Shown piece after piece: positions 27,729-52,264 of a stretch of DNA of 64,000 nucleotides (position 1 is its first letter; each line of letters opens with the position of its first letter). The notes under the pieces are model-generated. The model saw only the letters and a program-made list of their open reading frames with translations. It made no database searches and was not told the origin of the DNA. A program made the translations under genes and the position numbers. The DNA is from an uncultured Bacteroidales bacterium (GTDB taxonomy: Bacteria > Bacteroidota > Bacteroidia > Bacteroidales > JAGOPY01): positions 657 to 64,656 of the forward strand of contig CAZMOK010000011.1 of NCBI GenBank assembly GCA_964567785.1, in the 5' to 3' direction.

Positions 27729-27853
27729 TGAATATTGTTGCAGAATGTATATTTCTTGTGGTAATTGCCTCCCCTTTCATAAAAAAATCAGAAATTTGAG
27801 GGATATCAAGGTTTTTACCCTATAAATAATTTTTTTAACAAAAACTATTGCGC

Positions 27854-49486: not shown

Positions 49487-49564
49487 AGGAGCAGGAACAG
49501 GATTAGGAATAGGAATAGGAATAGGATTAGGAGTAGGGGCAGGAATAAGAACAGGAGCGGGAAA
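49487..49564 (+). repeat. 13-unit degenerate hexamer array (AGGNNN)
   Basis: The units are AGGAGC AGGAAC AGGATT AGGAAT AGGAAT AGGAAT AGGATT AGGAGT AGGGGC AGGAAT AAGAAC AGGAGC GGGAAA. The array starts 2 nt after the lptD stop. Confidence 0.85.
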
Positions 49565-49598: not shown

Positions 49599-49976
49599 AT
49601 GAAAAAGATCATCAACACATTGAAAGCGCCTTCTGCACTCGGGCCTTACAGCCAGGCAGTTGAGGCCAACGGCACCTTATACATTTCAGGACAGGTACCT
49701 GTAGACCCGGAAACCGGAAAGGTTGTTGAAGGCGGGATCAAAGAGCAGACAGACCAGGTCATGAAGAATATCGGGGCGATCCTTGAAGAAGCCGGATACA
49801 CTTATGAGAATGTAGTGAAATCAACCTGCCTGCTCAGCAACATGGACAACTTTGCCGCCATGAACGAAGTTTACGGCAAGTACTATCCTGAGAACCCCCC
49901 GGCAAGGGCGGCCTTTGGTGTGGTGAAGCTCCCGCTCGGAGTGATGATCGAGATAGAGACGATAGCGGTTAAATGA
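49599..49976 (+). CDS. RidA/YjgF-family reactive-intermediate deaminase
   Basis: 125 aa with APSALGPYSQAV..NGTLYISGQVP, PARAAFGV and IEIETIAV. Confidence 0.9.
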   Translation: MKKIINTLKAPSALGPYSQAVEANGTLYISGQVPVDPETGKVVEGGIKEQTDQVMKNIGAILEEAGYTYENVVKSTCLLSNMDNFAAMNEVYGKYYPENPPARAAFGVVKLPLGVMIEIETIAVK

Positions 49977-50009
49977 TTGTCGATTGTCGATTTTCGATTG
50001 TTGATTTTT
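49975..50009 (+). repeat. 5-unit heptamer array GATTGTC-type
   Basis: The units are GATTGTC GATTGTC GATTTTC GATTGTT GATTTTT. The first two bases are the GA of the ridA stop TGA (49974-49976). Confidence 0.85.
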
Positions 50010-50071
50010 TCTGAATAGGATAAATGATGCGGTGGTGCTATTACGCCATGCTGCCATGAAATAACTTTACT

Positions 50072-52225
50072 ATGAAAAAAACCTTAACACTAGCACTTGC
50101 AATTCTCTTTTTTATCCCGCTGGCTTCCGTAGCCGATGAAGGGATGTGGATCCCAAGCCTTCTTAAGAAATACAATATTGAAGATATGCAGGAAAAAGGC
50201 CTGCGGCTCAGTGCCGAAGACCTTTACAGCATAAACAGCAACAGCCTTAAAGACGCCATCGTCCTCTTTGGCAGGGGATGCACCGGCGGGGTCGTATCGC
50301 CCGAAGGGCTGATGCTGACCAACCATCACTGCGGATACGGACAGATCCAGTACCACAGCTCGCTTGAGAACGATTACCTCACCGATGGGTTCTGGGCTAT
50401 GTCGAAGGAAGAAGAACTGCCCAACCCTGGACTCACTGTTTCCTTCCTGGTCTATATGGACGATGTGACCGGAAAGGCCATGGAAGGGGTTACGGATGAC
50501 ATGACGGAGAAAGAACGCAGCGAAAAAATACGGGAGAACAGCGAAGAGATCATAAAAGAGGTCACCGAGGATACTCATTACGATGCCGTGGTAAGGCCCC
50601 TCTTCCAGGGCAACCAGTATTTTGTCTATGTAATGGAGATCTATAAGGATGTGAGGCTGGTGGGCGCCCCGCCCTCAGCAATCGGAAAATTCGGTGGCGA
50701 TACCGATAACTGGATGTGGCCCAGGCATACCGGCGACTTTTCCGTTTTCCGGATCTACGCCGATAAGGACAATAAACCTGCCGAATATTCGGAAGACAAC
50801 GTGCCTTATAAACCCAAAAAGCACTTCGACATTTCGATCAAAGGGGTTGAAAAGGACGATTTCACCATGGTTTACGGCTATCCTTACACCACAACAGAAT
50901 ACTACCCCTCTTATATGGTCGGTATGTATGCCAATTACCGGTATCCCGAAAGGATAAAGATCAGGGAGGAAAAACTTGACATTATCGGGGCTGCCATGAA
51001 TTCCGACCCGCAGGTGAGGATACAGTATGCATCGAAAGATGCCCGGATAGCGAATGCATGGAAAAAATGGATCGGCGTGATCAAGGGGTTGAAAAGGCTG
51101 AACGCCATGGAGAAAAAAGAAAAACTTGAAGCTGAATTCAACGAATGGGCTGCAACAGATCCCGATGGTGGAAAATACAAGACCTTACTGGATGAATATG
51201 AGGATGTGGTAGATGAGATGAAACCGCTGGCTTATTGGTCAGATTACTTCTCGGAAGCCATTTACAGTACCGACATCCTGAATTTCTCCTACCGTTTCAG
51301 GAACCTGGCCGGCCTTGAAAAAGACCAGGAAGAAGAGATTGAAAAGGAAATTGAAAAACTGGCCTCCACCACGCAGCGGTTTTTCAAGGATTATCACCGC
51401 CCCACCGACAAGAAACTCTTCGCGGCAATGATGGAGATATTCTATGAAGGAGTGCCGGAAGAGCAGCTCCCTGAAGTGTATGAAATGATAGGAAAAAAAT
51501 TCGACTACGATTTTGAGGAATATGCCGACTGGGTCTATAAGAAATCCATGCTCACAAACCAGGAAGATCTGATGTCATTCTTAGAAAAATACAAAGCATC
51601 CAAGGCCAAAAAGATCAAAAAAGACCCGGTTTATTCGGCAATGATGACTTTTTTGGATTATTATAGAGCGAACATTGCAGGGCAGTTGTCGCAGCTCGGG
51701 GGCCTGCAGGACAGCCTGCAGCGGATCTATATGGCCGGATTGATGGAATTCCAGCCCGAAAAGCTCTTCTATCCCGATGCCAATGCCACCCTCAGGGTCA
51801 CCTATGGCAAAGTGAACGGGTACTATCCCCGCGATGCAGTTTACTACCGCCATTACACTACCCTCGAAGGCATTATGGATAAAGACAATCCGGAGATCTA
51901 CGACTATGATGTGCCCGACAGGCTGAAGGAACTCTACCGTGATAAAGAATACGGCTCCTATGCCCGTCCCGACGGTGACATGCCGGTCTGCTTTATCGCC
52001 ATGAACCATACCACAGGAGGGAACTCGGGCAGTCCTGTGCTGAACGCCAACGGACAGCTCATAGGCCTCAACTTCGACCGTAACTGGGAGGGTACCATGA
52101 GCGACTTTATGTACGATCCCGACATGTGCCGCAACATTACCCTCGACATCCGCTATGCCCTTTTCCTCATCGATAAGTTTGCAGGCGCCGGACACCTTGT
52201 CGAGGAAATGAATATTGTTGATTAG
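50072..52225 (+). CDS. S46-family dipeptidyl-peptidase (DPP7/DPP11 type)
   Basis: 717 aa. The mature N-terminus is ADEGMWIP. Catalytic His lies in LTNHHCG and catalytic Ser in TTGGNSGSPVLN. Confidence 0.9.
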   Translation: MKKTLTLALAILFFIPLASVADEGMWIPSLLKKYNIEDMQEKGLRLSAEDLYSINSNSLKDAIVLFGRGCTGGVVSPEGLMLTNHHCGYGQIQYHSSLENDYLTDGFWAMSKEEELPNPGLTVSFLVYMDDVTGKAMEGVTDDMTEKERSEKIRENSEEIIKEVTEDTHYDAVVRPLFQGNQYFVYVMEIYKDVRLVGAPPSAIGKFGGDTDNWMWPRHTGDFSVFRIYADKDNKPAEYSEDNVPYKPKKHFDISIKGVEKDDFTMVYGYPYTTTEYYPSYMVGMYANYRYPERIKIREEKLDIIGAAMNSDPQVRIQYASKDARIANAWKKWIGVIKGLKRLNAMEKKEKLEAEFNEWAATDPDGGKYKTLLDEYEDVVDEMKPLAYWSDYFSEAIYSTDILNFSYRFRNLAGLEKDQEEEIEKEIEKLASTTQRFFKDYHRPTDKKLFAAMMEIFYEGVPEEQLPEVYEMIGKKFDYDFEEYADWVYKKSMLTNQEDLMSFLEKYKASKAKKIKKDPVYSAMMTFLDYYRANIAGQLSQLGGLQDSLQRIYMAGLMEFQPEKLFYPDANATLRVTYGKVNGYYPRDAVYYRHYTTLEGIMDKDNPEIYDYDVPDRLKELYRDKEYGSYARPDGDMPVCFIAMNHTTGGNSGSPVLNANGQLIGLNFDRNWEGTMSDFMYDPDMCRNITLDIRYALFLIDKFAGAGHLVEEMNIVD

Positions 52226-52264
52226 AGTTGAGTTCTGAGATCTGAGATTTGAGTTTTGAGATTT
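52221..52264 (+). repeat. 6-unit heptamer array (NNNTGAG-type)
   Basis: The units are ATTAGAG TTGAGTT-register AGTTGAG TTCTGAG ATCTGAG ATTTGAG TTTTGAG ATTT. The array starts at the S46 peptidase stop TAG (52223-52225). TGA occurs at 52229, 52236, 52243, 52250 and 52257. Confidence 0.8.

Follow-up and report, generated by a model that had tools for sequence, protein, structure and literature searches.

Intergenic heptanucleotide repeats have been described by Rehm et al. (2015) from Xanthomonas, with the unit GGGAATC, and from Nostoc PCC 7120, with the unit GGGGA(C/T)T (PMC4692102). About 90% of these repeats are intergenic, arrays of about four units are preferred, and no function has been found for them (PMC4692102). 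In Xanthomonas, transcripts start or stop at heptamer repeats capable of forming a G-quadruplex (G4) more often than at control repeats (PMC4692102). MacGregor (2015) reported direct repeats of the unit TAACTGA in Beggiatoaceae, cyanobacteria and five Bacteroidetes; indels in 7-nt increments were reported for Cyanothece strains, and contigs break at the repeats (PMC4679880). As summarised in the same paper, Mrazek et al. (2007) found heptamers to be the commonest long simple sequence repeats (SSRs) of prokaryotes, perhaps because a length of 7 nt matches the footprint of the polymerase (PMC4679880). The subject of the present analysis is a heptamer array that follows the ridA gene of an uncultured Bacteroidales bacterium. 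It lies in a stretch of 64,000 nucleotides (the window), which corresponds to positions 657-64656 of contig C11 in a genome (G000) of 3.28 Mb, 173 contigs and 45.8% G+C. The initial annotation had described this array together with similar ones at other gene ends, had found no described element class that fits, and had proposed either a replication-slippage signature peculiar to this genome or a functional 3'-end element. The interpretation preferred here, held with moderate confidence, is that the genome carries at least 500 heptanucleotide SSR arrays, the ridA array among them, and that these are a self-perpetuating, slippage-type repeat DNA that is tolerated after stop codons and needs no dedicated 3'-end function.

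The ridA array is a member of the known heptamer class of long SSRs and short tandemly repeated repetitive (STRR) sequences, a class that is still unexplained. The view that no described class fits was wrong, as the heptamers of Rehm et al., with about four units at or overlapping stop codons, match the arrays found here (PMC4692102). Shared with Xanthomonas and Nostoc are the 7-nt tandem units, the preference for about four of them and the mostly intergenic location; the arrays lie a few nt from a stop codon or overlap it, on the coding strand, and when an array is upstream of a gene the G-rich strand is the non-coding strand (PMC4692102). Arrays are rare between divergent genes in both cases, and their length and sequence vary among close relatives (PMC4692102). 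The differences lie in the units and the hosts. Xanthomonas and Nostoc have essentially one G-rich unit that is able to form a G-quadruplex, whereas the 517 arrays of the genome studied here comprise 153 canonical units, which are mostly AT-rich and free of G-tracts. The hosts also belong to another phylum, and a link to proteins of the PF05635 family, which is discussed below, is not mentioned for them (PMC4692102).

The TAACTGA repeats are likewise tandem heptamers that are mostly intergenic and that are mixed with other heptamers in some genomes (PMC4679880). In Flexibacter litoralis the unit lies forwards before starts and reversed after stops (PMC4679880), and the same is seen here in 14 arrays, with TAACTGA before starts and TCAGTTA after stops. 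Beggiatoa differs in that its repeats are mainly just upstream of starts and one unit is dominant, whereas in the present genome stop-adjacent arrays dominate and TAACTGA is a minor unit (PMC4679880). The STRRs of heterocystous cyanobacteria (Mazel 1990) and the class of long SSRs of 5-11 nt (Mrazek, Guo and Shah 2007) include, like the arrays here, tandem heptanucleotides dispersed in intergenic DNA, for which slippage of a polymerase with a 7-nt footprint has been put forward (summarised in PMC4679880 and PMC4692102). All the published features of the heptanucleotide SSR/STRR class are found in this genome, namely 7-nt direct repeats, an excess of period 7, a mostly intergenic location, placement at stops with scarcity between divergent genes, and differences between relatives in multiples of 7 nt; a fitting element class therefore exists. 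Nor are the arrays peculiar to this genome. Heptamer arrays are also present in members of the same family and in one genome of another family in the order, and they are reported from cyanobacteria, Xanthomonas, Beggiatoaceae and other Bacteroidetes as well (PMC4679880, PMC4692102).

Direct reading of the ridA array gives the units GATTGTC, GATTGTC, GATTTTC, GATTGTT and GATTTTT at positions 49975-50009 of the plus strand, and the initial G coincides with the middle base of the stop codon TGA of ridA (49974-49976). Tandem Repeats Finder (TRF) places the array at 49975-50006 and gives it a period of 7, 4.6 copies and 88% matches, which confirms that a GATTGTC array of about five units begins inside the stop codon. 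The ridA region is identical across independent assemblies from several sequencing runs and three studies. In the comparison genome G001, a sister species of the same genus with about 90% nucleotide identity, a GC-rich palindromic element of about 120 nt, unrelated to the array, occupies the site from the stop codon on, and the stop codon itself differs.

The TRF scan of the whole genome returned 556 rows of period 7, compared with 92 of period 6 and 193 of period 8. At a score of at least 40 there were 308 period-7 arrays, none in shuffled sequence, and 23-47 arrays for the other periods; the shuffles were made for coding and non-coding segments separately and kept the dinucleotide content. 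At a score of 30 about 78 period-7 rows survive shuffling. After merging, 517 period-7 arrays remained, of which 423 (82%) lie in intergenic DNA, a fraction that makes up 11% of the genome; 40 extend across a gene end and 54 are within coding sequence. The copy number has its mode at 3-4 units and the commonest length is 30-34 nt. The density of arrays is 2.16 per kb in convergent spacers, 1.1-1.5 in same-strand spacers and 0.57 in divergent spacers. In same-strand spacers, 65 of 203 arrays start no more than 3 nt from the upstream stop codon, while random placement in the same spacer predicts 24.5 +/- 3.3 (2000 trials, maximum 37). The adjacency of period-7 arrays to stop codons that had been noted in the window is thus real on a genome-wide scale. 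There is no excess beside start codons by the same placement test (25 arrays, 21.7 expected). Repeats with a unit of 7 or 8 nt are found no more than 12 nt away from 21 of the 89 N-gaps and 42 of the 346 contig ends, which implies that arrays are under-counted. These repeats were a main cause of assembly breaks in both G000 and G001.

The comparison with G001 shows how the arrays change. Most of the window aligns at 88-92% identity (84% and 97% in two short stretches), and a further 437 kb of alignment between the two genomes was compared beyond it. The rpoN array is longer by 7 nt in G000, exactly one unit fewer being present in G001. Elsewhere, relative to G001, a TTTACAG array differs by -7 nt, a CAGTTGG array by +14 nt, an AATCGAC array by +7 nt and a TTCTGAG array that flanks a PF05635 gene by -7 nt, and at one site about 1.5 units in G001 correspond to 4-5 units here. 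These differences of exactly one or two units between orthologous arrays support the proposal of replication slippage. Whole arrays also change in concert. One TTTAGTG array has become TTTAGAG throughout, and the array at 56276-56308, which lies in coding sequence, has equal length in G001 with every unit TCGATTA or TCAATTA, the reading frame being kept in both genomes. The encoded peptide therefore changes from GSVISYQLSVNSG to roughly SSIINYRLSIDGR. Sites can outlast the units that fill them. In five genomes from another genus of the family, the orthologous S46 peptidase gene carries a 7-nt array exactly at its stop codon, with other units than those found here (three of the five have TGTTGAA/TGTTCAA); in G001 this site is an assembly gap. 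The gain and loss of units, their homogenisation, the persistence of sites and the wholesale replacement at ridA fit a fast-evolving, slippage-type repeat DNA and not a conserved 3'-end signal.

Certain units recur at many unlinked sites. Among the recurring families are AATGAAC (41 arrays), TTCTGAG (26), GGGTGCT (23), TTTAGTG (21) and TTGAGAT (14). Arrays of TTTACNN start 0-3 nt past the stop codon at about 20 gene ends and end in a conserved tail, AAAGGAGT or AAAGTAGG; examples are C9:32047, C17:46356, C33:4531, C55:15761 and C99:4205. The same array and tail also form the arms of a PF05635 cassette on C99. Many spacers combine several arrays into a mosaic whose order recurs. A composite module was also observed before gene starts in many spacers, in which an AATTCAGAATTTAGAATT-type array, an ACCCAGC-type array and a period-8/9 array (TTGACAAT/AGAGACAAT) follow each other in constant order and orientation (for example C29:16341-16763, C36:27025-27521, C48:19111-19327 and C70:10533-10869). 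The motif TTGACA lies within the last, period-8/9 array of this module.

The placement of the arrays has a polarity. Among stop-adjacent arrays, 47 have more G than C in the sense of the gene and 22 have more C than G, a strand bias of 2:1, while arrays farther from the stop or near starts show C over G in 76 cases and G over C in 39. Three-frame stop codons are present on the sense strand of 62 of 108 stop-adjacent arrays and on the antisense strand of 39 (47 arrays have them on the sense strand alone and 24 on the antisense strand alone). Part of the strand polarity is a consequence of stop codons. The idea that the arrays are a safety net of stop codons in three frames was rejected, as the numbers amount to a bias only.

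The preferred interpretation, that of self-perpetuating repeat DNA, has several parts. Through slipped-strand mispairing or unequal recombination, arrays gain and lose length by steps of 7 nt, as the comparison of the two species shows. Units are homogenised, and a whole array can switch its unit in concert, as the same comparison shows. An array can persist at one intergenic site across genera while its unit drifts, as is shown for the S46 gene. Unit families are exchanged between unlinked sites and are also found as arms around PF05635 genes; the sharing is observed, and the manner of spread is conjectural. In a compact genome, the first bases past a coding sequence may be under less constraint than any other DNA. 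Where an array encroaches on the end of a gene, it would be tolerated mainly in the orientation that supplies stop codons, and orientations that place start codons in 5' leaders would be disfavored, which would give the 2:1 strand polarity.

Several observations weigh against this interpretation. No sense-strand stop codon of any kind is present in 23 of the 108 stop-adjacent arrays, which means that a filter by stop codons is only partial. Slippage alone does not explain the preference for period 7. It also does not explain the recurrence of unit families at dozens of unlinked sites, such as the 41 arrays of AATGAAC or the approximately 20 of TTTACNN with AAAGGAGT, or the match of the dispersed units to the PF05635 arms of the same genome and not to those of its relatives. 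The contigs of four runs had no length variation or indel at the ridA array and thus gave no sign of ongoing slippage within the population, although this is weak evidence as contigs hide rare variants. Terminator-like sites are rarer beside arrays than elsewhere, and the arrays could therefore substitute for terminators. A final caveat is that the genes were taken from a crude open reading frame (ORF) caller of our own, which gave 2493 genes and 89% coding sequence.

The alternative that survives best is possible and clearly less probable than the interpretation preferred here. It holds that the arrays are the dispersed partners of PF05635 cassettes, in a relationship like that of repetitive extragenic palindromes (REPs) and REPINs with their associated transposases (RAYTs); the protein, a likely oligomer that binds nucleic acid, would recognise, protect or help to spread the arrays of its own family, and solo arrays such as that of ridA would be copies or leftovers of the arms. 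PF05635 is named "23S rRNA intervening-sequence protein" and is related to Avd of diversity-generating retroelements (DGRs) (PMC10053308). Nine PF05635 genes are present in the genome, and seven of them have inverted 7- or 8-nt arrays on both sides; of the other two, one is at a contig end with a single visible arm and one has no arms. In each cassette examined, one arm adjoins the stop codon of a neighboring gene. Across eight genomes, 33 of 48 PF05635 cassettes have matched arms by strict criteria, with 32 pairs inverted and one direct, and the upstream arm has more G than C in 24 cases and more C than G in three. One cassette, at C45:16499-16972 between convergent genes, is flipped in G001 (C51:5522-5973) with the same TTCTGAG/CTCAGAA arms in place. 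The opposite orientation between unmoved arms suggests inversion by recombination between the inverted arms, and the flip is in keeping with either mobility or recombination.

The units of the arms also resemble the dispersed arrays. The genome's own arm units have a median of 12 exact matches among the dispersed arrays, while those of relatives have a median of 0; when one mismatch is allowed the medians rise to 32.5 and 4.5 (Mann-Whitney p 0.004), and six own arm units come within one mismatch of 34% of the period-7 arrays. In 19 genomes of the order, array density in samples of 34-147 kb correlates with PF05635 copy number (Spearman rho 0.75, p 2e-4), but this correlation ignores kinship and its signal comes mostly from the contrast between one family and all others. 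A 34-kb sample of one genome that has 10 PF05635 copies contained no arrays. Because the arms and the PF05635 gene are physically linked, the shared units could stem from recombination rather than from recognition. Of 457 arrays, 52 (about 11%) have an inverted partner no farther than 700 nt away, which is the level of a random-pair control (47), from which it follows that most arrays are not hairpin arms; the candidate explanation that all arrays are such arms was rejected for the same reason. No PF05635 gene is present in the window, all nine copies being on other contigs, and among the PF05635 loci of the genome no cassette with GATTGTC arms was found. The arrays of ridA, S46 and rpoN have no inverted partner array. 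The ridA array is thus a solo array, unlike a PF05635 cassette or a hairpin element of the intervening-sequence type. The protein has no known catalytic activity.

No reverse transcriptase gene (RVT_1) was found in this genome or in several array-rich relatives, one of which is near-closed. The PF05635 cassettes are therefore not components of a DGR, and the candidate that the arrays are made by a reverse transcriptase with an Avd-like protein was rejected. Intervening sequences of 23S rRNA that carry an ORF, as in Leptospira and Coxiella, encode PF05635 proteins. These share with the cassettes the arrangement of a gene for a PF05635 four-helix bundle that is flanked by inverted terminal repeats able to form a long stem by pairing. 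The intervening sequences sit in rRNA, whereas the cassettes found here lie between protein-coding genes and have arms made of 7-8-nt tandem arrays. A more specific and more speculative form of the idea is that heptamer arrays and PF05635 proteins may form a two-part system. Each PF05635 gene would carry inverted arms of a single unit family, and an oligomer of the protein would read the 7-nt register of this family in DNA or RNA. As REPINs depend on RAYTs, the family's arrays at gene ends in the same genome would depend on the protein for their spread or persistence, and the footprint of one oligomer could correspond to the typical 4-5 units (about 35 nt). The association with PF05635 is the most interesting open lead of this analysis and is not its main explanation.

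A comparison with the REP/REPIN-RAYT systems is useful here. REPs are imperfect palindromes of 20-40 nt, and the partner RAYT is a Y1 transposase with known chemistry. The possible likeness is that both consist of short extragenic repeats gathered after gene ends and between convergent genes, and that in both a small gene is flanked by inverted copies of a repeat family dispersed in the same genome. In contrast to the palindromic REPs and the known chemistry of RAYT, the repeats here are tandem and PF05635 has no known enzymatic activity. The arrays are not assigned to the REP/REPIN-RAYT class, as they are direct tandem repeats that mostly do not fold; a RAYT gene was not searched for.

It is rather unlikely that the arrays are functional 3'-end elements kept by selection, that is, terminators, sites of RNA stability or processing, or arrays for an RNA-binding protein. 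The significant adjacency to stop codons, the highest density between convergent genes and the size mode of about four units would agree with such a role, as would the array kept at the S46 stop across a genus and the behavior of transcripts at G4-capable heptamers in Xanthomonas (PMC4692102). By a crude criterion of our own, terminator-like sites are present at 8% of gene ends with an adjacent array and at 17% of the others, which is the opposite of the co-occurrence of arrays and canonical terminators that was considered and rejected. Among the 42 gene ends of the window, terminator-like sites are present at only 3, and the ridA and rpoN arrays account for two of the three. As RNA, positions 49979-50005 of the ridA array fold with -8.9 kcal/mol (z -2.26) and are followed by T6 at 50005-50010. 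The rpoN array folds with -14 kcal/mol (z -2.13), is followed by T5 and is the best terminator-like hit in a consensus scan of the 18 kb from 46 to 64 kb. The stems of both hairpins depend on G-U and A-U pairs. In the interpretation preferred here, terminator-like folding is incidental to families with self-complementary units, such as GATTGTC and GGCTGAT. On the predicted structures, the ridA and rpoN arrays, whose units are partly self-complementary and decay into a T-run, may serve incidentally as weak intrinsic terminators.

The arrays as a class do not behave in this way. Stop-adjacent arrays have a median folding energy of -0.95 kcal/mol and a median z of 0.07 against shuffles, and most are unstructured; folding is slightly better on the sense strand (54 arrays) than on the antisense strand (19 arrays), and weak on both. 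Units differ between sites and between species. About one third of the arrays have the opposite orientation and lie at mid-spacer or closer to a start, and the 54 arrays in coding sequence also speak against a 3'-end role, as does the lack of conservation of the ridA array at 90% genome identity. A dedicated 3'-end function, the second of the two original proposals, is thus unsupported for the class as a whole. Reads of the organism were absent from four RNA-seq runs with the same sample label.

The explanation that the arrays arose as low-complexity sequence by chance, or as artefacts in the assembly of a fragmented metagenome-assembled genome, is refuted; the 173 contigs and the gaps and contig ends that adjoin arrays point in its direction, but no shuffled arrays stand against the 308 real ones at the higher score, the ridA region is reproduced in independent assemblies, independently assembled relatives have orthologous arrays, and the gaps imply that arrays were missed and not invented. 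A role of the arrays as SSRs for phase variation, which sit in promoters or 5' coding regions of surface or virulence genes and switch expression through unit changes, was also rejected: they lie 3' of the housekeeping genes ridA, rpoN, lptD and that of DAHP synthase, and the array in coding sequence keeps the frame.

All the other array sites listed for the window in the initial annotation were recovered by TRF, and the gene names are backed by Pfam (RidA/L-PSP, S46 peptidase, sigma-54, LptD, EEP, DUF4838, and DAHP synthase fused to chorismate mutase). The period-7 calls are at 829-859, 52229-52262, 56544-56559, 56596-56615 and 60825-60852; the calls with other periods are at 1758-1788 (period 14/7) and 49487-49556 (period 6/24). 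That the unit differs at each site holds only loosely, as three sites in the window share the TGAGAT family and ten families account for about 195 arrays in the genome. On the minus strand, two inverted heptamer arrays at 780-859, AAATCCC/AAATTCC and the complement TTTGGAA/TTGGGAT, adjoin the stop codon of the EEP gene (860-862). The 88-nt RNA of this pair (775-862) folds with -29.4 kcal/mol and a z of -3.75, and none of 200 shuffles folds as well. The array at 1758-1788 of the minus strand has the units TAGATAG and TAAATAA in the sense of the gene, as a heptamer or 14-mer, and overlaps the stop codon of the DUF4838 gene. It is unstructured (-0.3 kcal/mol), and its site in G001 has a GC-rich palindromic element and two copies of GTTCATT. 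A purine-rich array of period 6 (AGGAAT/TAGGAA) begins just past the lptD stop codon on the plus strand (49487-49564) and is unstructured. It is kept in G001 with another copy number and an extra palindromic insert, and only six arrays of the AGGAAT type are present in the genome.

The array of the S46 peptidase gene (52221-52264, plus strand) belongs to the TGAGAT family and begins at the stop codon TAG (52223-52225); its folding is not above that of shuffles (z -0.49). The closest named relatives of the peptidase are from Bacteroidales metagenome-assembled genomes, at about 55% identity. The array with 4.7 copies of TCAGTTA at 56276-56308 (plus strand) is an additional TRF site, absent from the earlier list of gene-end arrays. 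It lies within the sequence that codes for the type IX secretion system (T9SS) sorting domain of a GH18-CUB protein, which is also supported by Pfam. The rpoN array (60825-60860, plus strand) is of the GATGGCT family and begins at the rpoN stop codon TAG (60823-60825). No Rfam family matched anywhere in the window at or above the gathering score.

At the end of the gene for DAHP synthase/chorismate mutase, on the minus strand, a TTGAGAT-family array is split in two. The left half is at 56544-56557, and the right half, at 56596-56617, holds the stop codon TGA (56613-56615) and is unstructured. Between them lies a 39-nt hairpin element, GGAGCGAAGCGGAATCCCGTGAGCGAAGCGAAACGGGA in the sense of the gene (56558-56596). 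In G001 the two halves form one uninterrupted array, and the 39 nt are therefore an insertion. About 18 close copies of this element are present in the genome, nearly all inside arrays of the TTGAGAT type (for example on C8, C18, C21, C39, C44, C97 and C124). The element, which has GAGCGAAGCG in duplicate and a hairpin of CCCGT/ACGGG, has the appearance of a very small mobile or co-dispersed sequence and recalls the small dispersed repeats that are nested in the heptamer arrays of cyanobacteria.

Other elements were observed in G001. GC-rich nested palindromes, such as TACCCTCCCCC...CCCCCTCCC-N-GGGAGGGGG...GGGGGTGGGTA, occur at the 3' flanks of genes, at positions orthologous to 49975-50018, 49537-49540 and 1672-1796 of the window, where heptamer arrays are found here. 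Some of them are embedded in period-6 AGGAAT arrays, and this REP-like family is not seen at these sites of the window. G001 also has a family of miniature inverted-repeat transposable elements (MITEs) of about 110-250 nt with the terminal inverted repeats AACGAGTTGTGCGGTT ... AACCGCACAACTCGTT and target duplications of 8-9 bp. Copies are at C139:4719-4971, C11:15239-15437 and C2:38502-38613, and the corresponding sites are empty in G000; one copy lies just past the rpoN array and another within an AAATAGT heptamer array. The possibility that the arrays themselves are insertions with target-site duplication was rejected: one case, with TTAATTAA on both sides, contains an assembly gap, and the clear duplications of 8-9 bp belong to the MITE family, which is unrelated to the arrays. 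At 27748-27825 the window has 76 nt between two conserved genes, and G001 has an extra segment of 650 nt with an ORF (C6:31549-32203).

Many bacterial genomes have heptamers among their most abundant simple repeats, and the reason for the period of 7 and the role of the repeats are still puzzling. The present genome adds an extreme, multi-family example of the class in the Bacteroidales, and a relative at 90% identity exposes its dynamics, including unit gain and loss, concerted change, nested mini-elements and cassette inversion. The arrays break short-read assemblies at about one quarter of the gaps, and they supply stop codons and terminator-like hairpins that annotation pipelines may misread. 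The finding is a genuine and statistically robust example of a known repeat class that is unusually diverse in this lineage. The link to PF05635, if true, would provide a testable protein partner for an old puzzle and a substrate for a large protein family of unknown function.

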